Shown here piece after piece: positions 1,729 through 47,094 of a stretch of DNA of 60,052 bases. Within the stretch, counting starts at the first letter, position 1, and each line of letters begins with the position of its first letter. The notes below the pieces were generated by a model. It was not told where the DNA came from, ran no database searches, and worked only from the letters and a program-made list of their open reading frames with translations. The stretch comes from a virus. Its lineage: Duplodnaviria; Caudoviricetes. The translations under genes and the position numbers were made by a program. The stretch is taken from positions 1-60,052 of the IMG/VR virus record IMGVR_UViG_3300032136_000006, one strand, 5' to 3'.

Positions 1729-2218
1729 CCTTCAGATTTGTAAGTTTTGTGGCGAAGAGTACGAGGCAAACCCTATTGGTAGGAAGAGCATGTATTGCTC
1801 TAAGCAGTGCAATTACGATGTACAAAACAAAAAGAAATCAGAAGCGGTTAAGCGGAAGATAAAAAAGAGATTATGTGAGGCTTGTGGACAGGAATACATG
1901 CCCAAACGTTTTGAGTCTGGACTGAAATACTGTTCTAGAGAGTGTATGGGGCGAGCAAATAATTTCCGCCAGAAATATGGGACTACCGTTAGAGAGTACA
2001 ATGTCATGTTTGAAGAGCATGCCGGTCGTTGTGCGATCTGTGGTGTTCATCAGTCACAGTTAGAAAAGGCGTTGCACATTGATCACTGTCATGAGACAGG
2101 GGCAGTGAGAGGGCTTTTGTGTTCTCGGTGTAATCGAGGTATCGGTCAGTTCAAAGATGATCCTGAGATTGTAGAAAGAGCAATTGAATTTCTAGAAGGA
2201 GAAGATAACCATGGCTGA
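1721..2218 (+). CDS. Endonuclease VII-like HNH (homing) endonuclease with N-terminal Zn fingers
   Basis: CAICG...LHIDHCHETGAVRGLLCSRCNRGIGQFKDDP is an intact EndoVII signature; ATG 1721 follows GGAG. Confidence 0.85.
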   Translation: MRNLQICKFCGEEYEANPIGRKSMYCSKQCNYDVQNKKKSEAVKRKIKKRLCEACGQEYMPKRFESGLKYCSRECMGRANNFRQKYGTTVREYNVMFEEHAGRCAICGVHQSQLEKALHIDHCHETGAVRGLLCSRCNRGIGQFKDDPEIVERAIEFLEGEDNHG

Positions 2219-26293: not shown

Positions 26294-27634
26294 TTAATAC
26301 CAGGAATTGTGAATACGACGATAGCTATCCTCGTGTGATGTTTTCTCAAGTGACTCCAGGTTGAGGTATTCCCGAAATACGTCTTCTAGCGTTTTGGCGT
26401 TAATGTCCCATGTCAAACGCATTCCGTAGGGGCGATAGGCGTACGAGCTTCCCGAACTATTGAACTTGAAGTACAACGTCCAAGAGTTATTCCACTGAGA
26501 ATATTCTATACCGAGAGCCTCGTACTGAGTTCGGTGCCATCTCCCGCGCTGCACAGGACTGTAATGTGCTCTGGCTAATTCGATGAGCACCGCTTTTTGT
26601 TGTAATGTTAATGCCTTAAAGTTTTTAACCTCAAACACCACGTTGTTACACTGGCGTATAATCTTTTCAGCCTCTTCAAATGTTTCGATACGTTCAAACT
26701 TTCCGGTAGTCTTACGGCAGAGACCGAAGGTTAATCCGTGGGACGTATAGCGAAAGGTGGCCCAGTATATTCGACGGTTGTACCGGGCATCCAATTCTCC
26801 GGAATTGAGAGCTAGAAACAATAGCTGCTTATTTGTAAACGGGACTTTAGCGTTTTTCACGACGGTGGCATTTGCCTCTTTTTCAGTGTCTACGTACGGC
26901 CCCTTACAGAGTTTAATGTAACGCCCTTCGGCTGTATGATGACAGGCTTCGCGAACTAAACACTTGCTACAAGCGTTTTCTCTGAAACGACGAAGTCTTC
27001 CGCGTTCTTTCAGCCCTTGGCGTGCTATGCTTGAGTTTTCTTCTACACAGCTGAAGCAGTGATTTGTGTGATGCCGGTAAGGTGACACAAAGTGTGTATC
27101 GCGGGTTAGCATAGGGCTCAGATACGTGAATCCTGCGATCATGCTCTTTCTATTTTTTAGGCTCTGTATGGCATCCGCAACGGTTACGTCTACGTCCGCG
27201 TTTTCCATCGGTTCCCAACAGTCTTTAAATACGCAATTTGTTTTTGTTTCAGATTCGAAGCAGTTGTCGCATCCTATAATCGCTCGTCGGGGGAGTTTAC
27301 AGCCGTAGTATACGTCCTGTAATCGGATTCTTTCGGGCTCATTATTAGGCGTAAACAGTATCACGGTATCTTCAGGCTGAGCTTTCTCCAAGCGGGGGAC
27401 AACCAGGTCTCTCACTTCGCGGGAAACTAAGATTTCGCTGTAGTCGTCTTTTTCGTATCGGTCGCAGGTCATCACACCATAATCCCCCATAAGGGAACGA
27501 CAAAGTGGGTCTTTCGCTATAGCGTTTATCTCTTCTTCTGTAACGTCTTCGCCATCTTTATGGAAGAACAACGCACAAGCGCTATCTCCATCCTGATCCT
27601 CGGCAGCGGTAACAGTAAACATTTTAGTCAGCAT
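26294..27634 (-). CDS. Cys-rich hypothetical protein coupled to the RT
   Basis: Its ATG overlaps the RT stop (ATGCTGA); Cys clusters CDNC..C..C, CFSC and CSKC-x5-C-x11-C. Confidence 0.7.
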   Translation of the reverse strand: MLTKMFTVTAAEDQDGDSACALFFHKDGEDVTEEEINAIAKDPLCRSLMGDYGVMTCDRYEKDDYSEILVSREVRDLVVPRLEKAQPEDTVILFTPNNEPERIRLQDVYYGCKLPRRAIIGCDNCFESETKTNCVFKDCWEPMENADVDVTVADAIQSLKNRKSMIAGFTYLSPMLTRDTHFVSPYRHHTNHCFSCVEENSSIARQGLKERGRLRRFRENACSKCLVREACHHTAEGRYIKLCKGPYVDTEKEANATVVKNAKVPFTNKQLLFLALNSGELDARYNRRIYWATFRYTSHGLTFGLCRKTTGKFERIETFEEAEKIIRQCNNVVFEVKNFKALTLQQKAVLIELARAHYSPVQRGRWHRTQYEALGIEYSQWNNSWTLYFKFNSSGSSYAYRPYGMRLTWDINAKTLEDVFREYLNLESLEKTSHEDSYRRIHNSWY

Positions 27635-28773
27635 TGTTGTGTTACTCTTTCTTTCTGTTTATCCACGGCTCTTTGAAATTCTTTTAAAAGTTTCTGCCCT
27701 TTTTCGGGATTTATCTGGTTTACCCAGTTTATTTTTCCACGGAGCCATACGGTCATGTCCGCGACTGAATCCTTTTTAGCTTTTGTAAGTTGCTGATCGA
27801 ATCCGTGCGTTACGCAGTTGTGGATTATTGCACGCAACTTCATATATTCGTCTCGAGCGTAATTAGGTTTTTCACTGAATACGATGCCTAAGAGGTCTTT
27901 CCTGTGATAGCCGTGTGTGATGCGCGTCTTTTTCTGGTTTACGTGGTAACCAGCTTCAACGATGATGTTTTCGATGTCTTTAATGATAGTTTCACGCTCA
28001 CACTTAGACGGATTAATCCCACAGGTAAACGCAAGGTCATCCGAGTATCGCGTGTACTTCCAACTCCAATCATCTGTTAAACCATAACGGTAATTTAGGT
28101 GTTTGACGTAGGCTAGAATCTTACCGTCTAGGCGCTGGTCTGCTACCAGATTGCAAATGGCTCCTGAAGCGGGAGACCCTTGTGGCGTTCTCGTGTACAT
28201 TTTACTGTCTTGTCCTAGAACATCTTGGACTACTAAAAGTCCTGCTAGAAGGCTGGCTACGGTATGGCTGTACCCTAAACGCTTAAAATAGTTTCGAATC
28301 CAGGCTCGCGTAGTAGTATGGAAGAAGTTCTGCAAGTCCAATTTCAAAAAGAGGCCACGTTTAGGGCAGCTGTGGGCTTTAGGAATTACGCCTTTGGTTG
28401 CCGTTTCGCAGATAGAACACGACGGGATGTGTTGTAATACAGCCGCTTTCACAGATAAGCCGGTTCGGTATGCTGTGACATGTGGTCCTAATCGATTGTG
28501 CATTGGTGTCAAAAAGCGTTCATTAATGCGCTGCAGTAGGAGTTTCATTCCAGGGCTAGGTGCGTGAATTATCCTTTTTCCTTTATTTCGTTTTGGAATT
28601 TCTATCACGGTGTACTGTGCTGCAGTGTTATGCAAGAAGTGCCACATCGTTTTGTTTTTGAATCCTAAGTGGTGTGCGAGAGAGCAATCGTCTATTACGT
28701 AGGGCATTCCGTTAGGAATATTTGATGGGAGTTCAATAATATCGATTGATGTTTCACGAAAACCTACAGCCAT
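27628..28773 (-). CDS. Retron-like reverse transcriptase
   Basis: IPKRNKGKRIIHAP, AAVLQH (NAxxH-like region X), LKLDLQNFF, TPQGSPASGAICN, YTRYSDDL (YSDD at 28036-28047), VNQKKT, LLGIV (VTG-like region Y) and LRGKINWV. Confidence 0.92.
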   Translation of the reverse strand: MAVGFRETSIDIIELPSNIPNGMPYVIDDCSLAHHLGFKNKTMWHFLHNTAAQYTVIEIPKRNKGKRIIHAPSPGMKLLLQRINERFLTPMHNRLGPHVTAYRTGLSVKAAVLQHIPSCSICETATKGVIPKAHSCPKRGLFLKLDLQNFFHTTTRAWIRNYFKRLGYSHTVASLLAGLLVVQDVLGQDSKMYTRTPQGSPASGAICNLVADQRLDGKILAYVKHLNYRYGLTDDWSWKYTRYSDDLAFTCGINPSKCERETIIKDIENIIVEAGYHVNQKKTRITHGYHRKDLLGIVFSEKPNYARDEYMKLRAIIHNCVTHGFDQQLTKAKKDSVADMTVWLRGKINWVNQINPEKGQKLLKEFQRAVDKQKERVTQQC

Positions 28774-29402
28774 TAGGATTCTCCTGTTCCGGGGGACTTT
28801 TTATTGTGGTCGTCGTATGCTACGCGTATTTTTGCGTAGCGTGCGCAAGCTGGCTGGCCTAGAACGCATTTTCCAGCATAAAGTTCGAGAACGTTTTTAC
28901 ACATAGCGCACAAAAGAGGGATTTTCCGAGTGGGTGTGGTTAGCGTTATGTTTGGAAGTTGGACTTTGCGGTTGTGGTTACCATCGATTGCGCGTGTTAG
29001 GAAGTACGCTAGCTCTGATTTATACGGTTCTTTTCCTTGGGCTTTCCCGTAAACAGCCCTTACGTGGGTGGGGACAACCATTAACCATTCTTCTGGGTCT
29101 TTAATCCATTCGTTAAAAGTTCCGGGGATACCAGACGCAGGTTTGCTTATTCCAATATGGGAAGCTGTGTCGCGCTTTACGCGTGTTTCTCGTACACGGG
29201 TAACGTGCAAGTTGCACAGGGCGGCTAGTAGTGGTCGGTCTAGTGGAAGGCTTAGGTAGTATCGAAATAGGCTATCAAATTGTGGGGTTAGGTGTTTTTT
29301 ACCCAAGTACACCCTATCAAATGGGAAACGAGAGTATTGCGTTACGTCTTCGGTTGCTAAAACCCGTTGTGCAATACGCACGCATAGTATGTGGTCTGAC
29401 AT
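28773..29402 (-). CDS. Hypothetical protein with C-terminal Cys4 cluster, coupled to the RT
   Basis: TAATG stop/start overlaps at both ends; CAMC-x10-C-x6-C motif. Confidence 0.7.
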   Translation of the reverse strand: MSDHILCVRIAQRVLATEDVTQYSRFPFDRVYLGKKHLTPQFDSLFRYYLSLPLDRPLLAALCNLHVTRVRETRVKRDTASHIGISKPASGIPGTFNEWIKDPEEWLMVVPTHVRAVYGKAQGKEPYKSELAYFLTRAIDGNHNRKVQLPNITLTTPTRKIPLLCAMCKNVLELYAGKCVLGQPACARYAKIRVAYDDHNKKSPGTGES

Positions 29403-30868
29403 TAATCCTCCATGCGCAGCACTAGTTTCATTTCTGCGTGAGCGTCTCCTCTTGCTGTTAATACCCAGAAGAGGGGTATTTGAGGGTCTAGGGCCGGGAG
29501 CGGGACGGGAGCGTACCCATCTGTAAATATCAACATGAGGTCGAAGGGGCTTCGATGGGGATCTTCGTTATAAGCTTCGGCTATCCAATCTTCTGCGGTG
29601 TCTAGTCTGGCGGCATAGCGAAGCGGGCCGTTGAACGATGTTCCTCCGTATCCGTAGCGGGTATTAGACTGGGACATATCCTTCGCATCATCGGAGGTAA
29701 GGTCTTCTACGTGCTGAATCGTGCAGTCGAAATGCAGTAACCGGACTGTCACACCCTCTTCCGTCTGCAGAAGTCCGCGGAGTTCTGTACAACAATCTAT
29801 GAAGTCATCCGTGCTCATACTGGCGGAGGTATCAAACGCGGCCAAGATATTAAACGTAAAGTTGTTTTGGTACCCTGGGTATGGTTCGTATCCCGCTGAG
29901 TGGAGCAGCGCAACGCTAGGGTACGCTGTACTTTCGTCCAATTTTTGAGATATAGCAGAACGTAGTTGTCCCCTTAGTACTTCTTGCCAGGGGATTGAAG
30001 GGTCCTCTAGTAGTTCATCGATAGTAGATTTGATACATCCGGGTATTACCCCGCGGGCTTTTATCGTTTGACGTGTGGCCGCAGCGGCGATGCGTCGCGC
30101 TTCGCGACGTGCACGGTCCATTGCGCGTTGAATTTCACTGTCTGTTAAGTTTTCAAATGTCTTGTTCCAGTCGACCGCCTTATGCTTTTTATTTAATAGG
30201 TCTTTAAACCATGAGGGTAGTTTTCCTCTACCTTCTCCATCTCCCTTGCCGTTCTCTTCTCCATCCCCCTTGCCGTTCTCTTCATCCGGCTGTTCGTTTC
30301 CTGAGTTACCCGTCGCTTTAGTTTGTTGTGGGTCTTCAGAATTGCTATCTTGAGGGGACCATCCATGTTTTTTGAGGTCCTGGATGAGTAGTACATAATA
30401 TTCTTCGGCAGTGAGACCACGCGAGTAACCCCGTGATTCCGGCCAAATCAGTTCTTTGCGATACGTTTTGAAGTTCTTTTGGTTGTCATCGACCATCGGA
30501 CGTAGTGCGAGGTCATTGACGGCCATATCCATCGCGATGTTTAGTACTTCTTTGATTTTAGCGGAGTAGTTGGTGTTTAGTGCTAGGCGTTGGAGGATAA
30601 TTCCACGCTCTATGTGCCTTAAAATGAGGTGTGCGGCTTCGTGCACAATTACTAGGAGACGGAAAGCTTCGTCTTGTGCTGCAAACCACGCTGGGTCCCA
30701 TAGCAAGACATATCGACCCTTTTTATCTAGCGTTACGCCACAAGTACCTAGTCCCGGAGTAGCGTGTAATCCACATCCGTTGAGCACTCTTCCGTAAAAG
30801 TTGTTACCGCCTCTCGGGCTACAAGCCCACTGTAGACATCGTCCTAATTCAGATTCTGTGTTTGTCAT
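29402..30868 (-). CDS. Metallopeptidase-like (HEXXH) plus vWA domain protein (DUF2201-like)
   Basis: IVHEAAHL and NIAMDMAVN in the N-terminal part, a low-complexity linker, then the MIDAS motif DTSASM, GGTSF and IFTDG. Confidence 0.88.
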   Translation of the reverse strand: MTNTESELGRCLQWACSPRGGNNFYGRVLNGCGLHATPGLGTCGVTLDKKGRYVLLWDPAWFAAQDEAFRLLVIVHEAAHLILRHIERGIILQRLALNTNYSAKIKEVLNIAMDMAVNDLALRPMVDDNQKNFKTYRKELIWPESRGYSRGLTAEEYYVLLIQDLKKHGWSPQDSNSEDPQQTKATGNSGNEQPDEENGKGDGEENGKGDGEGRGKLPSWFKDLLNKKHKAVDWNKTFENLTDSEIQRAMDRARREARRIAAAATRQTIKARGVIPGCIKSTIDELLEDPSIPWQEVLRGQLRSAISQKLDESTAYPSVALLHSAGYEPYPGYQNNFTFNILAAFDTSASMSTDDFIDCCTELRGLLQTEEGVTVRLLHFDCTIQHVEDLTSDDAKDMSQSNTRYGYGGTSFNGPLRYAARLDTAEDWIAEAYNEDPHRSPFDLMLIFTDGYAPVPLPALDPQIPLFWVLTARGDAHAEMKLVLRMED

Positions 30869-30894
30869 GGATGCTCCTTATATTCTTTTCTGCT

Positions 30895-30922
30895 TTGATT
30901 GGACCCCGGGTAGAGCTATAAT
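30895..30922 (+). promoter_or_regulatory. Sigma70-like promoter for the 30950 gene
   Basis: TTGATT-N16-TATAAT upstream of a GAGGT RBS. Confidence 0.5.
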
Positions 30923-30949
30923 TCTGCCTAGGAAACGAGGTAAAAATCA

Positions 30950-31957
30950 ATGAATCATGTGATAGACCAATCGTGCGACGCTGGATTTGCAACTCTTCGA
31001 ACTCTCGTGGAAAAATATCCCACGTTGCGTACCTTTGCGAAGAACGCCAATTTAGATTCCAGTGAATTCGAAACCCTATCCTCTGACTCTTTTGCCTGGC
31101 CTGCGGAACGCAAATTTCCCATACATACGCCACAGCATACGGCTTTGTCTGTTGGTTACAGTAAGATCGCTGCGGAAGTTCCCAAAGGGGTAGTTTCCAT
31201 GCTGGAGAAGGCAGCGGAAATTTACGGGATTACGCCATCCGTTTTTGAAGAGGCGAAAGCAGAAAAAGTGGCTGCCAGTGTTGATTACCTGTTGCCATCT
31301 CGCAAAAGATTTAGAGTATCTTCTCCCGCAGATGTCCCCCTAGCCGAGGAAGCGTATCGAATGAAGTATGCGCAACTGAGTGTTGAAGACCGTGCAGAAG
31401 CTGGAAATAACTTGGTAAACTACGCGAAGAAACATGAGGTTCCACTGCATCCTTCTACCAAAAAATTGGCAGGATTGACCTTAACCAGCACTTCAATTTT
31501 CAAGGATTGGATGGGTGCGCGGGCAGAAGCTGCCATGCAGGCTAAATCTCCCTTAGCTTCTGCTTTCCAGAAACTGGCCGAAGAATACACCAATGTGGAA
31601 CCGTTCGTGTACGACCGAACAGACCAGTTGAAACTGGCTGCGGCAGTGTCGCGTTTAGATAAGGAAGCAGGGCTAACACGGCACTATGGGCGTAAGCTTT
31701 TAACTCCGATTGAGACCGTATTCAACACCGATATCCCAAGAGATTCGTTGATGAAAGTTGGGTCAAGTCTTGCTAATAAGGAAATGCTTCGCCAGATACC
31801 GCTCACCTTTTGGGAAGATGCCCTGGGCGCAGATATTGCCAAAGAGGTTGCACCCAACGGAACCGTTAACGTAGAAACCCTAGAACAAATCATTCCGACG
31901 TTGCCCGCAGATTTGAGAGCCGCGCTGGAAACACAACTAGCGGCGTACAACAGGTAA
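30950..31957 (+). CDS. Hypothetical protein rich in K-x-A motifs, probable head/inner-body protein
   Basis: KNA, KIA, KAA, KVA, KYA, KLA x3 and KEA recur; FAWP..RKFPI and LLP.RKRF.V look like internal repeats. Confidence 0.6.
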   Translation: MNHVIDQSCDAGFATLRTLVEKYPTLRTFAKNANLDSSEFETLSSDSFAWPAERKFPIHTPQHTALSVGYSKIAAEVPKGVVSMLEKAAEIYGITPSVFEEAKAEKVAASVDYLLPSRKRFRVSSPADVPLAEEAYRMKYAQLSVEDRAEAGNNLVNYAKKHEVPLHPSTKKLAGLTLTSTSIFKDWMGARAEAAMQAKSPLASAFQKLAEEYTNVEPFVYDRTDQLKLAAAVSRLDKEAGLTRHYGRKLLTPIETVFNTDIPRDSLMKVGSSLANKEMLRQIPLTFWEDALGADIAKEVAPNGTVNVETLEQIIPTLPADLRAALETQLAAYNR

Positions 31958-31960
31958 TTA

Positions 31961-32734
31961 ATGGACAACCAATTAGTTAAGTTTGCGGAAATTTGCTCCG
32001 GTTTGACGCATTACACGGTAAAGACCGCGTCAAGAGAGGCGATTGCTAAGGAGATACTCAGCAATTCAGATGACCGGAATGCCACCGCGCTACTAATGGC
32101 CTTAAGAACCTTGCACGGGATTGACGCGCTGTACTGGGAACCGGAAACTATTTGGTTAACCTTGGAGCGCGAAAATAATATTGACCTGCCGGTCGAGGCT
32201 CGCGATAAAGTACAAGCTGCTATTTCCATCTTACGTAATCCAGCTTTCTTTTGGGACAACTTAGTTTTCCAGCGAACAGTGCAATCCTTCAATGGAGAAC
32301 TGTACGATCCCGAAACGCTACAAGAATGTCATCCGGGACACATGGCTTGGGCGGTTTACGAAGCGACACTTTTACGCGGAATGGACCCGGATAGCGATGC
32401 TCGCCCTGAAATAGACGAAGATGTACAGCAGTATATAGCTGTTTGTTTAAAGCGTGCGGGGTACGTCTATCCTCCAAACCAGCTGCGAGACGTTTCAGAT
32501 AATCTTGCATTGCTCCTTCCGGGCGCAGAGGAGACGTTCATCAGCTTAGTCAAAAAAAGTTGGGAGCAGGTAGATAAAGGGGGCCTCGCGAATCGTAAGT
32601 TCAACGAAGACCCCCTTAATATCCAACTGGCACAGCTAGCTTCCTGTTATCTCTACGTAAAGGAACAAGCGGAGAAGCTTGCGACGGACGTAATGTGGTT
32701 AGAGAAAGAGAATACTAATCCCTCATTGGTCTAA
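31961..32734 (+). CDS. Hypothetical protein, probably virion-associated
   Basis: 257 aa, cotranscribed with 30950; N-terminal VKFA and VKTA. Confidence 0.6.
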   Translation: MDNQLVKFAEICSGLTHYTVKTASREAIAKEILSNSDDRNATALLMALRTLHGIDALYWEPETIWLTLERENNIDLPVEARDKVQAAISILRNPAFFWDNLVFQRTVQSFNGELYDPETLQECHPGHMAWAVYEATLLRGMDPDSDARPEIDEDVQQYIAVCLKRAGYVYPPNQLRDVSDNLALLLPGAEETFISLVKKSWEQVDKGGLANRKFNEDPLNIQLAQLASCYLYVKEQAEKLATDVMWLEKENTNPSLV

Positions 32735-33944
32735 GTGCGGTCTCGGTTTGAATGTGCGCGTTGTCCATGTTCATTAACATCTCCAACCAGTATTCGTACT
32801 CTCCTAATTCATCCATGAGCTCTTCTAAGTATTTGCGTGCATTGGCTTGTTGAGCGGCTCCCTGCAGTTGAAACAAGATGCTAGAGGCTAATTCGTTGGG
32901 AAGGTCTTTACAGAAATCTAGCAAGCACCCTGCGGTTTGTTTTACGGGAGGTTTCTCCGCAAACAACAGTACCAATACGTTTTCGCACAGGCTAGAAAGC
33001 TTTTCCCGTTGACCCTTTTCTTCTAGTTGTTTAACTGCTTTTTGCGCCTTAGTGGAATAACCGTTTAGGATGTCCGTGGCACCCAGCATTACGTTGCTAT
33101 CCTTTAGAAATTCGATTAACTGTGTAGTACCCGTAACCCCGATCGATGCAGAAAACCGCACTTGCGCGAACGAGCTTGTTAGCGCGATCCCTTTTGCTTC
33201 CATGTTATAGGCATCTTCTGAAATCGTTTCTACCGTTGCGGGGCATATGTATTGTTTACCCTGGTCTCTCGCCTTTTCGTCGTAGAGTAGCCTAGGGTTT
33301 GTTTTAAAGTACTCTAGGACGTGGGGGTGACATACTTTGTCTTTCGCTGGACCGGTAGCGTCGGCATGGAAGCAGTTTGTTTTAGCGTGGGTGTACCACC
33401 CCGCGAACTCTGGAATGACGTATAGAAATTTAACGCGTCTACGGATAGCGGCTTCATTTTCGATATTAGTTACGGCATAAGCTGCTGTAGCAGGATTCAT
33501 CGTACCTACTACCAGACAATCTTCCGGGAGGCGGTAATTGAACATACTTCCATCTTCGAGAAGGGTGAAGAACTGTGCGATCGCATGCTTTAACCCTCTG
33601 TTAAGTTCGTCAAACAATAGAATGCTCTTCTGTCCCAGTTTTGGAAATATGCTAGGAACAGCAACATCAAAGAAATCTCCTTCGGCTTTTCGGGGAATTC
33701 CGGAACCCATTAATCCCCAGTGCGCGGTGTGGATCGGGTTTAGGTCGTAGCCGTATTCGCGGCAGATTTGACTAAAGATTTGTGTTTTTCCTAGTCCTGA
33801 CTCTCCTACTAAAACAATACAACCACGGCGCTGTTTACTCTCTAACGAAAGTAAGATTTGTTCGCGGGCTTCGGCGAGAGTCACCTGTGGGATGTCTAAT
33901 CTTTCTGGATAAGATAGTGCGGTTTCGTTTTTCGTTCTTGTCAC
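32715..33944 (-). CDS. MoxR/dynein-related AAA+ ATPase
   Basis: Walker A GESGLGKT, Walker B LLFDELNR, sensor GTMNP and arginine finger AIRRR; typical partner of DUF2201-vWA proteins. Confidence 0.88.
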   Translation of the reverse strand: MTRTKNETALSYPERLDIPQVTLAEAREQILLSLESKQRRGCIVLVGESGLGKTQIFSQICREYGYDLNPIHTAHWGLMGSGIPRKAEGDFFDVAVPSIFPKLGQKSILLFDELNRGLKHAIAQFFTLLEDGSMFNYRLPEDCLVVGTMNPATAAYAVTNIENEAAIRRRVKFLYVIPEFAGWYTHAKTNCFHADATGPAKDKVCHPHVLEYFKTNPRLLYDEKARDQGKQYICPATVETISEDAYNMEAKGIALTSSFAQVRFSASIGVTGTTQLIEFLKDSNVMLGATDILNGYSTKAQKAVKQLEEKGQREKLSSLCENVLVLLFAEKPPVKQTAGCLLDFCKDLPNELASSILFQLQGAAQQANARKYLEELMDELGEYEYWLEMLMNMDNAHIQTETALRPMRD

Positions 33945-33973
33945 GTCGGTCTCCTTCCCTTAATGTGGTAGGA

Positions 33974-35599
33974 ATGTTAAAAGAATCAACTGCCAATGAG
34001 CGGCTTAGTGTGATAGCTGAATCGTGGATTATGTTAGACGGTAGGCCTTTCCTACTAGACGATTGGCCAATGCATCGAGCGTTCTACGATGGACGTTATC
34101 AGCGTACATTATTTAAAACAAGTCGTCAGGTAGCAAAGAGTACAACCTTAGCGAACTTCAGCATTATTGAGTGTAGTATTATACCACATTTCTCTACTAT
34201 GTTTGTGAGTCCAACCAAGGAGCAAACGATGCGCTTTTCTAACACACGTGTTGGAAAAACGATGCGGTATTCTCCTATTATCAATAAATACTTTCTCAGC
34301 ACAGACCTGACGGACCGAGTGTTTCACAAGCAATTCACAAACGGTTCGGAGATGCTTTTTGCTTACGGTACAGATGACGCTGACAGACTTAGGGGTCCTT
34401 CTACCGACCGCAATATGTTTGATGAAGTACAAGACTTATTGTACGACCCTATTATTACGGTAGGTAACGAAACGATGTCCAATTCTCGCTATGCGTTTGA
34501 AACTTATGCGGGAACTCCAAAAACCATGGAGAATACCATCGAGTACTTGTGGGGGTTATCCACGCAAACGGAGTGGGTTATAAAGTGTGACGCATGTGGG
34601 ACACACCAGTTTATTGATAACGAGCGGTCCATAGGAAAGTATGGCCCTATTTGCGTTAAGTGTAAGGACTACCTCAATCCTTTTAATGCTCGCTGGATCG
34701 ATATGTGCCCTGTCGATCGCAGTAAAGACGAGGACGAGTACTCGAAGTTAAAGGGGTTTCATCTCAATCAACTCATAATGCCTCAAAATGTGCCTAAGGC
34801 GATGGAGCGGTACGGACAAGAAGCGGTGGATACTGCGAAAAGGCGCTGGAAGAGGATCCTTACCAAGTACAAAGAGTCTCCACCTGTCGTTTTTCGGAAT
34901 GAGGTCTTGGGCATTTCAGATGCGGTGGGAACTCGGATGCTCACTAAAGAAGAGCTTGAAAGCCTTTGCAACGAATCGCGGTCATTCCAAAAATTTCCGG
35001 AAGAGGGGTCGATGACTGGAATTGTTACGTGCGTTGCCGGAGTAGATTGGTCGGGAGGCGGAACTTCTGGGGTATCAAGAACCGTTCTTTGGATTTGGGG
35101 TTGGCGTCCGGCTGACCAGCGGCTAGTTTGTTTGTACTATCAAGTTTTTCCAGGACAAAATCCTGTGCACATCGTAGATGAGATTGCGGTAATTTGTTCC
35201 AATTACAGAGTCATGTTGGTTGTGGGAGACGCCGGGGAAGGGCATATGGCTAATAACCTTCTCCGGGAACGGCTTCAGTATCACCGTGTCCAGCAGCTTC
35301 AATACGGGGCTCAGCGTAAAGCGATTCAATGGAATGGTGAAGATCGCTTTATGGGAGACCGGACAACGTTGATCGACAACTACTTTATGCTCCTCAAAAA
35401 CCGAGCTGTGGAATTTGGACCATTAGCTGTGATGCGAGTAGCTATCGAGGACTTACTCAACGAGTACGAAGAGGTCACGACCTTAGGTCGAAAAGTGTGG
35501 AGGCATTCACCTCAAAAACCTGACGATTGCTTACATGCTGGATTGTTCGGTTGGGTGGCGTTCAAAATAACTCAAAATGATTTGAAGTTTTACCAGTGA
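33974..35599 (+). CDS. terL: Terminase large subunit (lambda GpA-like)
   Basis: KTSRQVAKST Walker A-like motif, LRGPSTD..MFDEVQD, GTPK, a Zn ribbon, GVDW nuclease motif and PDDCLHA. Start placed at ATG 33974 to avoid overlap with the ATPase gene. Confidence 0.85.
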   Translation: MLKESTANERLSVIAESWIMLDGRPFLLDDWPMHRAFYDGRYQRTLFKTSRQVAKSTTLANFSIIECSIIPHFSTMFVSPTKEQTMRFSNTRVGKTMRYSPIINKYFLSTDLTDRVFHKQFTNGSEMLFAYGTDDADRLRGPSTDRNMFDEVQDLLYDPIITVGNETMSNSRYAFETYAGTPKTMENTIEYLWGLSTQTEWVIKCDACGTHQFIDNERSIGKYGPICVKCKDYLNPFNARWIDMCPVDRSKDEDEYSKLKGFHLNQLIMPQNVPKAMERYGQEAVDTAKRRWKRILTKYKESPPVVFRNEVLGISDAVGTRMLTKEELESLCNESRSFQKFPEEGSMTGIVTCVAGVDWSGGGTSGVSRTVLWIWGWRPADQRLVCLYYQVFPGQNPVHIVDEIAVICSNYRVMLVVGDAGEGHMANNLLRERLQYHRVQQLQYGAQRKAIQWNGEDRFMGDRTTLIDNYFMLLKNRAVEFGPLAVMRVAIEDLLNEYEEVTTLGRKVWRHSPQKPDDCLHAGLFGWVAFKITQNDLKFYQ

Positions 35600-36292
35600 C
35601 CGTCGTCCGTTTGTTTTCACAGCCACTGGCAAAACCTCAAGCCCTCCTGCTAGTAAGTTGTTGCTAAGGTCCTGACGAAATGGAGCTTAGCACATGTTCT
35701 TGGCATCTTTACACTGTAAACGAGATGTAGCATCTCAAACCGTCAACCAGACTTTCTGGTATGGTGCCAGTAGGGCATTTTTTTTGTGTTGCTTCATTCT
35801 GGTGTAAAGTATCTGTATGCATGAAGAATTTTAGGCTGAGTCTGCGAAAGCATAAACTTCTTCAGGCTTACAGACTACTTTATAGCTAGATTGCGACCTA
35901 GCAGTTAACGGCACTGCACTCTGCTATCGTGTTTCTTAAATAGAGGACTCCTATATTTAAGTACCTAGCACTGCTCCCCTTTCTTTCCAGTATAGAGGTG
36001 TAACACCTCCGGGCCGTCCTGCGGTCCGCCAGAGTGCGATTTGGGAAGTATCTTCCCCCTTACTTATTGCCTATAAGTCCAACACAACTTTGTACTGCTG
36101 TCAGTGGTAAGATCTGTGGGGTTCATACGGTACAGTTGTGGTACACCACTGTGACGTAAGAACTTCACTTGATCTTGAGATATTTTGTTATCCCCTTAGT
36201 TCCGATATTAGTGGAGTAGCTCCACCGTCGCTTAATGTAGCGTCGGAAAGTCCAGTACATCCTTTTATACCATTGTTTTGATTTCTTTTGAA
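35600..36292 (+). ncRNA. Candidate large structured non-coding RNA
   Basis: About 690 nt with no ORF of 60 aa or more; at least a dozen hairpins; nested long-range helix GCACTCTG/CAGAGTGC; G-U pairs favour the + strand. Confidence 0.55.
35763..35785 (+). terminator. Putative intrinsic terminator
   Basis: GGTGCC-AGTAG-GGCATT hairpin running into a T8 tract. Confidence 0.5.
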
Positions 36293-39200
36293 CTAGCCCT
36301 TGGCTAAGTCGTTTCGAATTTCATGATCTTCGTAGTCTTCATCATCTTCTTTCCCCTTGGCATCTCTTGGATTGTCTGCGAGGTAGTGGTTGATGTCCTG
36401 AAGTTCTCCATAGGAGGGTCCTACTTCTACGTCCCACGAAAATGGGACAGGAAGCCACGGATAGTTTTGGGCAACGCGTCGAACTCCGTATTCTTCAATA
36501 AGTCCGGGCATCTGGTGTACCTGTGTCTTAGGTACTTCCATTACCAAGGAATCGTGAACGGTGATTAATTGGCGTCCCCCTAAGTCCCGAATAGCCGAGT
36601 CAATAGAACATAGGACGTCCATCACGATATCCGAAGATGTACTTTGGATTTTAAAGTTTACCGCTTGGCGTTCTGCCTTAGCCTTCATAAACCCCGTCAT
36701 ACCTTTTGTATTAAAGCGTCTTCGGCGTCCAATAAAGGTCTCAACAACTCCGATCTGGTGCACTTGCCGTTTGGTGAGTTTAATATACTCCGGAATAGTG
36801 GGAAACATGCGAAATAGAACGTTAATAATTGCCTGGGCCTGCTCGTGAGATATTCCTACGATGGACGCAATTTTATTTTTGCTTGCTCCATAGAGAATTC
36901 CAAAAACAACGCGTTTAATATTGCTCCGTAGGATTCCAAGCTGTTTTCCATACCAGGGATCATCGTCGGTTAACGCGCCTCTGTTTTGAAAATCGTTATA
37001 GCTCCATTCATGTTTTTCGTCGATACCGATAGTGGTCAGAACCTTTTCTTTGTCTGCCTGTGCAACTCCTTCTAGGACCGTTTCGGGTTTAAGAACAACC
37101 GAAGAAAAGAATGAGTGGGGGTCCATTCCTTCTTGCAGGGCTTCAATCAGGTTTTCATCTTTGCTGTACGCCGCGTAGAGCCTAACTTCTGCAGCTTTTG
37201 CGTCGGCATTTACGATAACGTGGGTCTCTCTGTTAGTAGGTACAAACATCTTTTTGATGTTGTGCTGTCTGATGCGTGCAGGGATGTTCTGCATGTTCTC
37301 GTCGTTAGACGATAAGCGCCCCGTTGCAGTGCCCATGATATTAAACGTAGTGTGCATCTTGCCATCTTCTTGACTTAGCACGCGGATGTTTTCGATAAAC
37401 GTATTTCGCGCTTTTGTCAGTGCGCGATACTCCAACAAAACCGTAGCGAACTTACATCTATATTGGTTTTTCAATATTTTTAAAAAAGCCGCATCAGTGG
37501 ATATCTCGCCAGAATCTGTAATCCTCAACTCTTCTTGAGCGATAACGCTTTTATACGATACAACATCGATGGAGTTCTGCTCCGGATAGTATCCCGTAGT
37601 AAAGAATAACTTACGCAAATGTGCCGGACTATTGGGGTTAAAGGGGACCGAGAACGATTTAGGAGGTACCATCTGTGTTAGTTCAGACGCTAGTTCTAGT
37701 ATGGCACCATCCATCTTGAATGCGAGTTCCTCTGCATAGTCAAGGTCAACCGCCATCCCGTATTCTTCCATACGGGCTAGTACCTTAGTGGTATCTAGAA
37801 GCCGTCGATACATTATGTGCTTGAGTGGTTCTTTGTATGTACATCCAGGGACCGCTACGTCTTGATACAACTTCTGTCTTCCGGCTTTTCTTCTGATGTC
37901 TCTTAGGTCTTCATCTTCTTGTATCATCCTTTTGCGTTGTAACTCACAGAGTTGACGTGTAACGTCCGCGTCAACCGCACCGTATTCGTTTAACTGTTTC
38001 AAAGGAATATTGGCGAAACCATCGTCGTTATATAGCTTTTTTGCCGCTCCCGTTAAACTAGACCCCGCACCTTTTTCCTTTTTCTTCTTCTCCTTTTGTT
38101 CTGCTTTACCTCGTATTTCCGTCAATTCGTCTTCATAGCCGGAATGTGTTGGTAAGTAGAGTCTTGTAAGAGACTTCAACCCGTAGAACCCACGTTTATC
38201 TTCAGCTAGAAGGTGCTCGCCTAACATCGTGTCCCAGGCAAGCCGGTTAACAGTCCAACCTTTAGCCCATAGAACACGAAGGTCGTACTTAGCGTTGTGA
38301 AAGATTTTAGGTTTGGGACAAGCCAGTAGTTGTTGGATAACCGGAAAAACCTCTTTAAACGACCAGGGGGTCTTCGGGTGTTCTATCGGAATTGACGCAG
38401 ATTTACCTACGTCCCACGCTACGATTAACGTGAGAATCTTTAGCTTCTCCCTGTGGGGATATAGGGTATTAGTCTCTGTGTCGATTGCGATAGCGTGGTT
38501 ATCAGGTGTGTTTCCGGGTTTGTGGTACATCACGATCTCATCCACAAGTTTTCGAACCGCGGTGAGCGTTTTGGGAAATCGGTAATCTTTAATAATTACG
38601 TCTAAAGAAAGAACGGGATTTACGTTATCGGCACTCTCATTCTGCCTTGCATGCAGCACTGCGCCCATAAAGATTCCAATATGTTCGCGGACAACATCCA
38701 TGTAACCCGTTTTGGTAGGCAATTGACGCTTAGACAACGATGCAAATACAATTACAGCGCGTTTTCCTAGCGTAGTATGGTGGAATTTTCCTTGAGCTTC
38801 CGAATACTTCCCAATCTTAATCCCTAATGACTGCAAGACTGCGGGGCCCAACGCAAAAACCATAATCGGTTTATCCCGTCGAGATTTATCCAGCAGCTCT
38901 TTATGAAAAAGTGGCTGGCAAGCTTCTCTCTCTTTCTTGTTTGGTTTTTCTACAGCACAGCGAATTGCTGCAGTATATCGTCCTGAAAGCGCTGCTTGTT
39001 TCGGATTGTTTTTCTTGTGGGTGGCAAAGGCTCCTTTCACCATACCTTCCACATCAATTCTCCAACTGGAATGCGCTATGTCTCCTGATGGTCCACTGAT
39101 GACAGGGGTCTCTGCAACGCAGAAATAATCCACGTCAGAGTATGCCCCAATCCCCTCGGCGTAGTGTTGCACTCCGCGCAAGGGGCACTCATTACATTTT

Positions 39201-39301
39201 GGGCCGGTCCACGCAGTGGTCCCGCACAGCATGCAGTCGATTTTATTTGATACGCTCGGGGACGTTGCCTTCCCAGGAGTCGACGGAGGCGGTGTTGTCA
39301 T
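36293..39301 (-). CDS. polA: Family A DNA polymerase with N-terminal uracil-DNA-glycosylase-like domain
   Basis: Exonuclease motifs IDTET, FHNAKYDL and YGAVDAD; polymerase motifs ATGRLSS, ADAKAAEVR, IKRVVFGILYG and TVHDS; N-terminal CNECPL...IRC...EREAC...ALG is UDG family 4-like. Confidence 0.93.
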   Translation of the reverse strand: MTTPPPSTPGKATSPSVSNKIDCMLCGTTAWTGPKCNECPLRGVQHYAEGIGAYSDVDYFCVAETPVISGPSGDIAHSSWRIDVEGMVKGAFATHKKNNPKQAALSGRYTAAIRCAVEKPNKKEREACQPLFHKELLDKSRRDKPIMVFALGPAVLQSLGIKIGKYSEAQGKFHHTTLGKRAVIVFASLSKRQLPTKTGYMDVVREHIGIFMGAVLHARQNESADNVNPVLSLDVIIKDYRFPKTLTAVRKLVDEIVMYHKPGNTPDNHAIAIDTETNTLYPHREKLKILTLIVAWDVGKSASIPIEHPKTPWSFKEVFPVIQQLLACPKPKIFHNAKYDLRVLWAKGWTVNRLAWDTMLGEHLLAEDKRGFYGLKSLTRLYLPTHSGYEDELTEIRGKAEQKEKKKKEKGAGSSLTGAAKKLYNDDGFANIPLKQLNEYGAVDADVTRQLCELQRKRMIQEDEDLRDIRRKAGRQKLYQDVAVPGCTYKEPLKHIMYRRLLDTTKVLARMEEYGMAVDLDYAEELAFKMDGAILELASELTQMVPPKSFSVPFNPNSPAHLRKLFFTTGYYPEQNSIDVVSYKSVIAQEELRITDSGEISTDAAFLKILKNQYRCKFATVLLEYRALTKARNTFIENIRVLSQEDGKMHTTFNIMGTATGRLSSNDENMQNIPARIRQHNIKKMFVPTNRETHVIVNADAKAAEVRLYAAYSKDENLIEALQEGMDPHSFFSSVVLKPETVLEGVAQADKEKVLTTIGIDEKHEWSYNDFQNRGALTDDDPWYGKQLGILRSNIKRVVFGILYGASKNKIASIVGISHEQAQAIINVLFRMFPTIPEYIKLTKRQVHQIGVVETFIGRRRRFNTKGMTGFMKAKAERQAVNFKIQSTSSDIVMDVLCSIDSAIRDLGGRQLITVHDSLVMEVPKTQVHQMPGLIEEYGVRRVAQNYPWLPVPFSWDVEVGPSYGELQDINHYLADNPRDAKGKEDDEDYEDHEIRNDLAKG

Positions 39302-44697: not shown

Positions 44698-45732
44698 ATG
44701 TATACAGAACTGCAGACTAACGACAAAGTTTATGACCTTTATTACAATGAAGTGGGACGCCACACGTTGTTATCGCAAACAGAAGAACGGGAGTTACTCC
44801 GGCGTTATCATTGTTGTTCATTGTGCACTAGGCGTATACCCCTACGGGTTCGTTCTTCTAACTGTCCTGATTGTGGCGCTATTTCTCCGGATAAACCACA
44901 AGGTCGCGACTTTGTTTGTACGTCCTGTTTTAAGGCTTATTCACCTGTTACAAATGCGCGGACGTGCCCAGCCTGTGGAGCTGGACGCGACATGGAAGCT
45001 AGGCAGGACCTGATTCGTGCAAATTTACGGTTTGTGATTCGTCGAGCTAAGAAATTCACACAAGACGCAGAGGTCTTGCATACACTTATCTCGGCTGGAA
45101 ATATCGGATTAATGCAAGCTGTTGACCGGTTTAATATAGATACGAGTCATCGATTTTTAACGTACGCAGAATGGTGGATCCGAAAAGAAATAATGGATGA
45201 ACTCAATCGTTCCAATATGATTCACGTCCCCACACATAAGCAGAAAAAGTTACGCAGGATAAGTAAAGAGGGTCAGTACGTCTGCATTCATTGCGGTCTA
45301 AGGACCAACAGCGAGCACAATGTAAGGCATCTTCCAGCCTGTAATGCCTACGGAGGACACGTATTAGAGGTGCCGTTACAGCGCGATAGCCAAATATTAA
45401 GTGATGCACTCAATATCGACGACATGGTTTGCGTTGCGACAGACGATGTAGAGAAACAGTATCATGCTGCAGAGATGCAGACGGTACTACGCGCTACAGT
45501 GGATACGATGGGGTTAAGCGAACGAGATAAGTTCATAGTTGTAGGGTACTTCGATGCTGTTGCAGCTGATCGGAAAAGTGACCCAAAGAAGCTACCCCAA
45601 CTTGCGGCCGTTACAGGTATTACACCGGAACGTGTTCGACAAGTTAAGGAAAAGCTTTTAATGCGGATTAAGAAAGAACTGCGCAAGGCGGAAATCACGA
45701 CCCTGTCTACTCTTCTACCAGAAGACCAGTAG
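44698..45732 (+). CDS. Sigma70-family sigma factor with zinc-ribbon insertions
   Basis: Region 1.2 YYNEVGRHTLLSQTEERELL, region 2 LIRANLRFVI...LISAGNIGLMQAVDRF...FLTYAEWWIR and region 4 GITPERVRQV. Confidence 0.9.
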   Translation: MYTELQTNDKVYDLYYNEVGRHTLLSQTEERELLRRYHCCSLCTRRIPLRVRSSNCPDCGAISPDKPQGRDFVCTSCFKAYSPVTNARTCPACGAGRDMEARQDLIRANLRFVIRRAKKFTQDAEVLHTLISAGNIGLMQAVDRFNIDTSHRFLTYAEWWIRKEIMDELNRSNMIHVPTHKQKKLRRISKEGQYVCIHCGLRTNSEHNVRHLPACNAYGGHVLEVPLQRDSQILSDALNIDDMVCVATDDVEKQYHAAEMQTVLRATVDTMGLSERDKFIVVGYFDAVAADRKSDPKKLPQLAAVTGITPERVRQVKEKLLMRIKKELRKAEITTLSTLLPEDQ

Positions 45733-46702
45733 CAATTTCCATCCCATCAATAACTCCCAGATTGTATGTTCTTTCTGCTTTTGTTGCAGACTGTATTGCA
45801 CGGTCTCGATACGTATCAAGCCAGTCTACCATGTCTTTTTTCTTCACAGGCTTCATGCGTTTATACACTTCGGGGCTTCGGTAATCCTGTAGGTTTAGCT
45901 CCGGTGTTTTTTTGGTTTTCTTGTGTGCTGCAGCTCCACGTTTGGCTGGAGATTTAGGTGCTTTTTCTCCCGCTTTAGCGGCTTTCTTAGCCTCTTGGGC
46001 TGCTTTACGCGTACGATAAGCCTCAATAGCTTCCCCTACAGATTGCGCTGAATCTCCGGATAATGCTTTGCTTACCATCTTTTCATAGAATGCTTGGTCA
46101 ACCTTACGGTCCAGCTTAGCAAACTGACGGAACATGGCAAATGGTATCTTTTCCGCTTTTAAGGCATCCTGTAACTGAGGGTCAGCCTTGAGGATAGATA
46201 AGTGCTGGCTTACGTAGCCAGCAGAACAACCACATGACCGCGCAATTTTTTCATTTGTAAACTTATCATTTTCTATAAGTTTACCAAAGGTTAGCGCAAC
46301 CTCGTAGGGTGTATTATCCTTCCTAGTTAAATTAGCCACTAGAGCGTGTAACCGTGCGTCTTTGTCTGTCTTTGCATGACTGATCGTTACCGGTGCAGTT
46401 ACGGCTCCCATTTCACGGAGAGCTGCATATCGACGGCGACCATCCACTAAAACATATGCGTTTTTAGTGGGTTCCTCTCGTACTAGGATTGGATTAAGTA
46501 GCCCCGCAGAAGAAATAGACGCAACTAGGTCGCTAATATCCCCTAATGTCTCACGATTCCAGTCTTTAGAAAGTTCAATACTGGACAGATTTATTGTCGT
46601 ATTCTTGAAATCGTCTTTTGTATTAGTCCGCCGTTTACGGGAGGTTACTTTTGCGGACTTTTTTGCGGATGTAACCCCTGTTGTTTCTGTTTTATTCGCC
46701 AT
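45707..46702 (-). CDS. parB: ParB/Spo0J-like protein
   Basis: LVASISSAGLLNPILV...LVDGRRRYAA, ANLTRKD and an HTH-like IARSCGCSAGYVSQHL segment. Confidence 0.85.
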   Translation of the reverse strand: MANKTETTGVTSAKKSAKVTSRKRRTNTKDDFKNTTINLSSIELSKDWNRETLGDISDLVASISSAGLLNPILVREEPTKNAYVLVDGRRRYAALREMGAVTAPVTISHAKTDKDARLHALVANLTRKDNTPYEVALTFGKLIENDKFTNEKIARSCGCSAGYVSQHLSILKADPQLQDALKAEKIPFAMFRQFAKLDRKVDQAFYEKMVSKALSGDSAQSVGEAIEAYRTRKAAQEAKKAAKAGEKAPKSPAKRGAAAHKKTKKTPELNLQDYRSPEVYKRMKPVKKKDMVDWLDTYRDRAIQSATKAERTYNLGVIDGMEIATGLLVEE

Positions 46703-46714
46703 GTTGACCCTCTC

Positions 46715-46972
46715 TTAAAGTGAGTTAATCGTATCGAGTAGAACTCGTTTACTTACTCTGCTCAATGGTAAATCACTAGGTTTCACCCCCTCTAGGATGG
46801 CGCCCAGCGTGTGGAAGAGTTCGGTGGTTAGAGGAATAAGGCTCTCATCACTGTTATATACGATCATATACAGCGCTCTAATAGCTTTCAGCTTTTCCTC
46901 CGATGAGGTTGAATCGCGTAAGCGCGACTTTATTCTCTTCTTTCGAAGGGGCGGCTTCCGCAATTCGGACAT
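46715..46972 (-). CDS. Hypothetical protein
   Basis: 85 aa with AGGAG RBS, in the - strand operon. Confidence 0.55.
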   Translation of the reverse strand: MSELRKPPLRKKRIKSRLRDSTSSEEKLKAIRALYMIVYNSDESLIPLTTELFHTLGAILEGVKPSDLPLSRVSKRVLLDTINSL

Positions 46973-47094
46973 AACAAAACTCCTGTTTTAGCCTCATCTC
47001 GGAGAACAGCGTCACATGTTGGACACCGTGGTTGGTCTCCCTGCTTTGCTTCTTTCTCGAGGGTGCTATCCTCTGACACGCCGTACTTTTCCAT
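46930..47094 (-). CDS. Small zinc-ribbon protein (54 aa, not in ORF track)
   Basis: Manual translation MEKYGVSEDSTLEKEAKQGDQPRCPTCDAVLRDEAKTGVLLCPNCGSRPFERRE; AGGAG RBS; fills the gap in the operon. Confidence 0.7.
   Translation of the reverse strand: MEKYGVSEDSTLEKEAKQGDQPRCPTCDAVLRDEAKTGVLLCPNCGSRPFERRE

Follow-up and report, generated by a model that had tools for sequence, protein, structure and literature searches.

A gene-free, structured stretch between terL and polA

The DNA analysed here, called the window throughout, is a 60,052-nucleotide (nt) virus record (IMG/VR IMGVR_UViG_3300032136_000006) with an estimated completeness of 34%. Our subject is the element at 35600-36292, which exactly spans the space between the stop codons of two convergent genes, terL (large terminase) and polA; the latter closes a replication operon on the minus strand, with a primase/helicase and an exonuclease upstream. 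A first-pass annotation, made from the letters alone, had singled out this region as the only long stretch free of open reading frames (ORFs) in a tightly packed window. Indeed, the longest ORF overlapping it on either strand is of 47 amino acids, and it is the largest stretch left uncovered by ORFs of at least 100 amino acids, the runner-up (46702-47063) measuring ~360 nt. The element is real and conserved, structured on the plus strand, modular, and absent from Rfam and from the literature searched. The locus is arranged as follows.

33782-35599, plus strand: terL (Pfam GpA_ATPase, 1.2e-13), its stop codon abutting the element
35600-36292, plus strand: the whole structured non-coding element, between the stop codons of terL and polA
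36293-39301, minus strand: polA (Pfam DNA_pol_A, 2.1e-73, plus 3'-5' exonuclease), converging on the element

Relatives were collected by terL-based searches, which returned 19 IMG/VR loci and 80 metagenome loci (single loci carry L numbers and records G numbers below). The elements share no long frame or conserved ORF, and their short coding matches only mirror conserved nucleotide blocks.

The first-pass annotation had also described the region as densely self-complementary, and the folding energies agree. On the plus strand the window element has a minimum free energy (MFE) of -224.9 kcal/mol, against -181.2 +/- 4.9 kcal/mol for 20 dinucleotide shuffles (z -8.9, 0/20 as good), and on the minus strand one of -205.0 kcal/mol (z -4.2). 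When 12 elements from relatives were treated in the same way (12 shuffles each), every one folded far better than its shuffles, with z from -5.2 to -17.1. Of 17 elements, 15 have a lower MFE on the plus strand than on the minus strand, and for 14 of these the difference is 9.5-55 kcal/mol. Constraining the window fold to the helices supported by comparison, described below, costs 8 kcal/mol (-216.9 vs -224.9 kcal/mol).

Predicted architecture of the module

As read from the sequences, the element consists of one to five tandem or nested copies of a single four-helix module, with the order P1 - CU - variable hairpin(s) - P3 - P4 - UC - P1'. The closing helix P1 has 6-11 bp and an inner G-C pair, its 5' strand ending in G followed by CU and its 3' strand reading UC|C; P3 is a hairpin of 6-8 bp capped by a G-U(A/U)N-C triloop, and P4 is a small hairpin. 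Modules measure ~110-240 nt and whole elements 128-1073 nt. The window carries four of them (I, II' with II nested inside it, and III) and, after them, a conserved 3' tail; the parts are these.

35623-35636, plus strand: 5' motif CCACUGGCAAAACC, kept in the four window-type elements
35641-35776, plus strand: module I, closing helix GCCCUCCUG (35641-35649)/CAGUAGGGC (35768-35776), 8/9 pairs
35662-35692, 35708-35720, 35722-35736 and 35746-35760, plus strand: interior of module I, two hairpins, P3 (G-UAG-C) and P4
35785-36086, plus strand: outer module II', closing helix UGUGUUG (35785-35791)/CAACACA (36080-36086)
35799-35889, 36043-36057 and 36062-36078, plus strand: interior of module II', a long hairpin followed, after the nested module II, by P3 (G-UAU-C) and P4
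35916-36037, plus strand: nested module II, closing helix GCACUCUG (35916-35923)/CAGAGUGC (36030-36037)
35935-35961, 35995-36009 and 36011-36027, plus strand: interior of module II, a hairpin, P3 (G-UAA-C) and P4
36091-36259, plus strand: module III, closing helix UGUACUG (36091-36097)/CAGUACA (36253-36259)
36108-36177, 36211-36225 and 36226-36245, plus strand: interior of module III, a long hairpin, P3 (G-UAG-C) and P4
36265-36272, plus strand: 3' tail motif UUAUACCA, kept in most relatives as YUUAUACC or CUUUUACC

The helices differ in sequence between the window and its relatives. The closing helix of module I is CCUUUGUUG/CAACAAAGG in L001 and UAUUGUCG/CGACAAUA in L002, and that of module II is AUUCUG/CAGAAU in L001 and GACUCUG/CAGAGUC in L002. 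The closing helix of module II' is present in 4/4 window-type sequences, with a compensatory change in L029 (GCGUUG/CAACGC). The P3 hairpins of these four sequences show compensatory changes at 4, 5, 1 and 3 of 6 pairs, 4/6 being the value for module I (4 sequences) and 5/6 that for module II. Module II' follows the family order (P3, P4, then UC|CAACACA). Modules II' and III carry CU/UC at the closing helix and modules I and II carry CU/GC; a strict scan of the 60-kb window with the module grammar matched module III only. Pairing of the 5' motif (CCACUGGYAAAACC) with a 3' strand or with the tail is not conserved.

Most of the helices named in the first-pass annotation were located at their coordinates (TGCTAAG/CTTAGCA, TTTAC-ACT-GTAAA, ACCAGA-CTT-TCTGGT, TGAAGAA/TTCTTCA, GCTAG/CTAGC, GCACTCTG/CAGAGTGC, CTTAAATA/TATTTAAG, ACTTAT/ATAAGT and CCGTCGCT/AGCGTCGG), and of these all except GCTAG/CTAGC, which goes unused, take part in the MFE structure, in the comparative model or in both. 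GCACTCTG/CAGAGTGC proved to be a covarying module-closing helix. A further proposed helix, CACAACT/AGTTGTG, is not borne out: it is absent from the MFE structure, and in 4/4 close relatives, L029 with its compensatory change included, CAACACA pairs with UGUGUUG instead. The GAAA tetraloop that had caught attention does exist, as one loop among many, but the loop that recurs is the G-UAA-C triloop.

The tail word TTATACC has 5 matches across the window versus 7.2 expected, which rules it out as a general phage promoter or signal. In L008 (6111-6119), L014 and L029, TTATAC overlaps the polA stop and last valine codon; in the other relatives it is non-coding and lies 1-171 nt from the stop.

The architecture was then assessed over 20 elements. 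In a survey of hairpins with at least five perfect pairs and a 3-nt loop, 42/58 carried G-U(A/U)N-C on the plus strand, and G-UAA-C occurred 22 times versus 4 for its complement G-UUA-C. The flanking coding DNA (59.9 kb) has G-UNN-C in 3/75 triloop hairpins and G-UAA-C in none. Helices of the form G|CU...UC|C with at least 6 bp number 70 in the 20 elements, compared with 8.7 +/- 2.9 (maximum 16) in 50 shuffles, and the conserved words (YGCU / GUACUGCU and UCCAGUAC) correspond to the opposite strands of closing helices. The sequences of these helices vary freely between relatives and modules (for example ACAUACACUG/CAGUGUAUGU and CAUUAAUUG/CAAUUAAUG): among 33 distinct closing helices, pairs 2-7 each occur with 2-5 canonical pair types, and CU is found in 33/33 and UC in 31/33, these words being part of the search rule. 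When 30 modules were defined by the closing helix alone, the triloop hairpin not being used for picking, 27 of them had a G-UNN-C hairpin whose end lies 15-43 nt ahead of the 3' strand, a small hairpin intervening; for the three window modules in this set the distances are 31, 20 and 27 nt. P4 did not fit one MAFFT register and was recorded per sequence. Finally, the strict grammar scan gave 33 matches within terL-polA gaps versus 2 elsewhere in 1.24 Mb, counts that include near-duplicate loci, and both out-of-gap matches directly follow terL, on contigs that end before polA.

Covariation and covariance model

Hairpin H1 (P3 of module III), aligned in 12 elements, is 98.6% paired, with 5/6 pairs changed on both sides and a covariation of 0.783 versus 0.286 in shuffles (0/500 as high). 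P1 and P3 were aligned together in 16 of the 30 modules, chosen for compactness. Their 13 pairs are 97.5% paired, a percentage which for P1 arises partly by construction, since the modules had been picked by P1 complementarity, whereas the P3, shuffle and flank controls do not. Changes on both sides are seen at 11/13 of these pairs, and the covariation score is 0.813 versus 0.263 when shuffled (0/500), with slid controls at 0.21 or below.

A covariance model, R1, was built from the 16 aligned modules. In the window only three seed modules score (module I, 35643-35774, E 1.3e-10; module III, 8.5e-10; module II, 35917-36036, 2e-5), the next best matches having E 1.3 and 2.7. Over 78 loci (534 kb) there are 34 matches at E<=1: 13 seeds, 20 non-seed modules, all of them on the plus strand and inside gaps, and one off-target match (E 0.65). 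The complete 179-kb genome of a relative has one strong match, in the gap, and R1 has no match on an element-free record. The 179-kb relative also shows a weak extra match (E 0.027, 79 nt, G001:C1:114449-114527, minus strand), which is either a module that has degenerated or a chance match. An assignment to dispersed palindromic repeats (REP/BIME, MITE-like) was considered and rejected, R1 being significant only in the terL-polA gap, whether in the window, in the 78 loci or in whole records, that one weak match aside.

Gain and loss among relatives

All the relatives share the gene order DUF2201 - two unknown genes - MoxR-like ATPase - terL - polA - primase, and the five neighbouring genes do not differ in kind with or without the element (local co-occurrence). 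What differs is the distance between terL and polA: -20 to +10 nt in 17 loci, and 128-1073 nt in ~20 distinct near-clade elements. Sequence identity with the window is limited to short blocks even in the closest relatives (terL 82-83% identical). The element-bearing relatives are uncultured phages, among them the complete 179-kb record. Among cultured phages the nearest terL is that of Salmonella phage Arash, with 29% identity and no synteny.

A quick terL tree was built from 57 rows, with partial, duplicate and gap-undefined loci excluded and the thorough tree search unfinished. To explain where the element is missing, it requires at least three changes inside the near clade, read as at least three losses. 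Element size varies greatly between sister phages (474 vs 269 nt; 520 vs 128 nt; 165 vs 546-607 nt). Single modules make up the elements of L013 (span 114 nt) and L012 (154 nt), three tandem modules are present in L007 and L031, and five in L001 and L029. The element is dispensable, with a fast turnover by module gain and loss.

In the distant-clade loci L083 and L104 (terL ~51% identical), an ORF-poor stretch of 500-990 nt with module-like folds still lies 3' of terL, a different minus-strand gene separating it from polA; the 504-nt stretch of L104 folds with z -5.0 and carries a CUUAUACCA tail. Modules of L083, L104 and L085 fit the grammar, and with the filters of R1 off they score E 0.006-0.09, the range of three off-target matches, so that their membership in the family is suggestive only. 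No module was seen in L043 and L047. In the distant-clade loci L073-L084 and L096-L100, most terL-polA gaps of 500-740 nt are nearly filled by a minus-strand frame of 167-203 amino acids, the longest frame in the gap of L084 being on the plus strand; this frame represents either an additional gene or an extended end of polA rather than the RNA element. The site 3' of terL is a variable spot.

Other routes to relatives gave little. A polA-based locus search returned only 2 loci. Scanning IMG/VR for the exact pattern of the K motif returned five, of which two were known relatives; the three others, without terL or polA and with no further similarity, were treated as chance. A scan of genome contigs gave no host clue, finding only phage-like contigs binned into unrelated metagenome-assembled genomes (MAGs). 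L118, the same contig as L013/L044, is a 78,677-nt phage contig with a single-module element filed in an Archaeoglobales MAG, and other relatives are filed in MAGs of five different bacterial groups. These placements are probably binning artefacts rather than host evidence.

Other genes of the window

The reverse transcriptase (RT) gene, to which we return below, is listed here.

27628-28773, minus strand: RT gene (RVT_1, 3.7e-20), 7 kb from the element

Within 26294-33944, this gene is clustered on the minus strand with genes for two unknown proteins and for a DUF2201 VWA/metallopeptidase-like protein. The gene of a MoxR-type AAA ATPase (32715-33944, minus strand) stands ~1.8 kb beyond the cluster, past two plus-strand unknown genes. 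The terL ORF as listed (GTG at 33782) overlaps the 5' end of this divergent gene; since the terL alignments of relatives begin only at residue 16-75, the true terL start is probably further downstream. A sigma-factor-like protein (44698-45732; phrog_351, 1.8e-32) adjoins the replication genes. At 2211-7121, an ORF of 1636 amino acids contains internal direct-repeat families (units of 300, 278, 94 and 71 nt, 63-78% identical) and probably encodes a repetitive structural or fibre protein.

Interpretation of the element

The first-pass proposal of a novel large structured phage RNA on the plus strand stands: position and structure are conserved, pairs covary, the strands differ in the expected sense, and neither the window nor the relatives match Rfam. 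The account that we favour, and hold to be reasonably likely, is that the element is a plus-strand non-coding structured RNA of a family outside Rfam, for which we propose the name terL-3' module RNA, carried as a 3' extension of the terL message and serving as a modular, multivalent platform. It would be transcribed with the late, packaging message of terL, and one autonomous folding module would be used one to five times, in tandem or nested. Such an array would most likely work as RNA, a compactly folded platform bound by protein, resistant to ribonucleases, or both; it would shape the fate of late transcripts or yield a stable RNA species. In most relatives the first P1 starts at or overlaps the terL stop codon, so that a promoter of its own could not fit outside terL. 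We infer, with good support, that the element is RNA rather than single-stranded DNA and is made together with terL; the G-U pairs and the energy advantage of the plus strand favour RNA over DNA. The element's link with the terL message, together with how rapidly it is gained and lost, points to an accessory role late in infection.

Several points weigh against this account. A sigma-70 scan of the region found no promoter, and no terminator was identified. Among the public sequencing runs listed as carrying the sequence there is one DNA run, which may be the source sample, and no RNA run. Thermodynamics, loop asymmetry and covariation would equally fit a single-stranded DNA of plus polarity. 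The relatives are few, with ~20 distinct elements of which only 4 are close to the window; kinship among the sequences inflates the shuffle tests, and the P1 percentage has the partial circularity given above. The element is absent from 12/29 near-clade rows of the terL tree, in which synteny is otherwise identical, and so is not essential. As for the platform or nuclease-resistance role, we only infer it, and the present tests do not separate it from that of a passive spacer.

That spacer is the alternative that survives best, as a passive insulator or 3'-end protector whose hairpins merely stop convergent transcription and 3' exonucleases, with no specific fold or partner. We think it unlikely. 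It would account for an element that fills the exact space between two convergent stop codons, that is dispensable and variable in size, and whose minus strand also folds better than chance. However, element-free relatives overlap both stop codons without any spacer, so an insulator is not required. Any stable hairpin would do for such a purpose, yet the G-UAA-C loop, the G|CU and UC|C junctions, the module order and the tail are conserved, and this across phages whose terL proteins are only ~50-83% identical. Terminator-like sites in the element number 2 versus 1.4 +/- 1.4 expected, both of them internal and on the plus strand, with none at the ends.

The building rule also contains a feature that goes beyond a plain platform. 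L004, L005, L006, L009, L034 and L062 have 3-5 copies of GGUACUG|CU versus one UC|CAGUACC, and L036 has four AUGCCG|CU versus one UC|CGGCAU. The spare 5' strands are each followed by an unrelated hairpin and nevertheless track the single 3' strand, which suggests alternative or intermolecular pairing, or gene conversion. In a bolder reading, to which we give a small chance, the module is a new autonomous RNA fold and the arrays of one 3' strand and many 5' strands form a register switch or self-assembly device on the late transcript, rapidly gained and lost. If so, the late transcript would carry a multivalent RNA machine, which might serve as decoy or scaffold towards a protein of host or phage, or assemble from RNA alone as GOLLD and ROOL are reported to do, and its rapid gain and loss in large uncultured phages would fit an arms-race function. 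Taken as the general explanation of the element, self-assembly or register switching, with spare strands giving multimers as in GOLLD and ROOL or fallback closures, is decidedly improbable: in the window-type elements each strand has a single partner, which makes the feature less than universal, and recent duplication with gene conversion could give the same picture. The spare-strand arrays nonetheless raise a concrete question.

The first-pass annotation had left open a single-stranded DNA origin or packaging element beside a functional RNA; the RNA is favoured, and the DNA element, a replication origin, priming signal or packaging site in which repeated GUACUGCU words would be protein-binding iterons, is the less likely, to be rated no higher than a general register switch. 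Its appeal lies in the position between the terminase and the polA/primase genes, in the clustering of the 8-mer GTACTGCT (4 copies in 300 nt of the gap versus 8 in the rest of a 91-kb record), in three contigs that end inside the element (L003, L032, L040), and in an invariant GCT that may resemble a primase recognition trinucleotide. Against it, the nested closing helices span 110-640 nt and would be hard to form in duplex DNA or in DNA coated with single-strand-binding protein, and the G-U pairs and plus-strand energies favour RNA. The supposed iteron forms the 5' half of a helix, and where it changes its 3' partner changes too (AUGCCG/CGGCAU in L036, ACACUG/CAGUGU in L012). Moreover, the element stays with terL, apart from polA, in L083 and L104, and the complete 179-kb record has the locus mid-contig and not at an end. 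GC skew follows gene orientation and is uninformative on an origin. In the 91-kb relative, two further GTACTGCT words, 48 nt apart, precede terL by ~700 nt (G002:C1:29677-29732, plus strand). Copies of GTACTGCT inside the 3' end of L008 polA were dismissed as a coding coincidence (Q-Y codons).

Finally, the first-pass idea that the element is the template or partner RNA of the RT encoded 7 kb away is hardly tenable: an RT homologue (45-55% identity) is found in 9/10 related records, the tenth being a 44%-complete fragment, the RT lies on the opposite strand, and no Rfam retron or group II intron matched. The RT-bearing records include both element-free ones examined (G006, G007) as well as those with single modules of 128-165 nt (G004, G005), and the presence of the RT in records without the element leaves the idea unsupported. 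No second copy of the region, direct or inverted, occurs in the window, where the only match is one of 29 nt and 76% at chance level. Two specific versions were rejected as well, namely the template of a diversity-generating retroelement (no template/variable-repeat pair in the window, and an RT that occurs without the element) and a retron msr-msd RNA (RT on the minus strand, element on the plus strand, several genes between). The RT looks like a core gene of the clade, and a tempting but wrong link to it is thereby removed.

Comparison with known families and systems

Rfam 15 at gathering score gave 0 matches in the whole window and 0 in the loci of 16 relatives (123 kb), with families that include GOLLD, ROOL, OLE, HEARO, raiA, group I/II introns, RNase P, tmRNA, 6S and riboswitches. 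At permissive thresholds, the region and the L013 element with its one module gave only chance-level matches to microRNA, long non-coding RNA and K10_TLS models (E 0.58-5.6). ARAGORN found 0 tRNA or tmRNA genes in the window, and blastn in distant mode found no match of the region in 50,697 GenBank phage records. A self-splicing intron (group I/II) was rejected: the element stands between two complete convergent genes with conserved C-termini, and no intron model matched. Nothing on the element was found in the literature searched, including passages of PMC10690425, a study reporting more than 10,000 structured RNA candidates from viruses and phages, whose catalogue may list pieces of the element.

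Comparison with described systems is therefore one of likeness and difference. The 3' untranslated regions (UTRs) of flaviviruses contain tandemly duplicated structured modules (exoribonuclease-resistant and dumbbell elements). The element may work in a similar way, with a repeated compact multi-helix fold at the 3' end of a message and a copy number that varies between relatives; it comes from a bacterial DNA phage, however, and the analogy would be one of working only, with no homology of sequence or structure expected. The REP/BIME sequences of enterobacterial genomes are hairpin-rich and non-coding and often lie between convergent genes at mRNA 3' ends, and they are short, dispersed and present in many copies. 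The element shares with them the hairpin-rich non-coding units between convergent genes, but it occupies one locus per genome and its multi-helix modules are of ~110-240 nt.

The prohead RNA of phage phi29 is a phage-encoded structured RNA tied to the packaging ATPase, with intermolecular base pairing. Our element likewise has a physical link, in its case to terL, and contains GGUACUG/CAGUACC words that are complementary. It differs in showing no homology or Rfam match to that RNA and in belonging to another phage type, and the relatives without it keep terL; a packaging role by analogy would be pure speculation.

Non-coding RNAs that are both large and intricate in their folding are rare and prized, and GOLLD and ROOL, the few that phages are known to carry, are still without an assigned function. 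The element resembles these two in its length of hundreds of nt, its many helices, its phage origin and its lack of an ORF. GOLLD and ROOL are reported to form RNA-only homo-oligomers (PMC12286853). Unlike them, the window element has no Rfam match to either family, and the elements are variable copies of one ~110-240-nt module, always directly 3' of terL and often absent in close relatives. What the family adds beside GOLLD and ROOL is a building rule of unusual clarity and simplicity, backed by covariation; it is restricted to a single genomic position, and its natural minimal (~110-150 nt, single module) and expanded (up to five modules, ~1 kb) versions provide a directly testable series.

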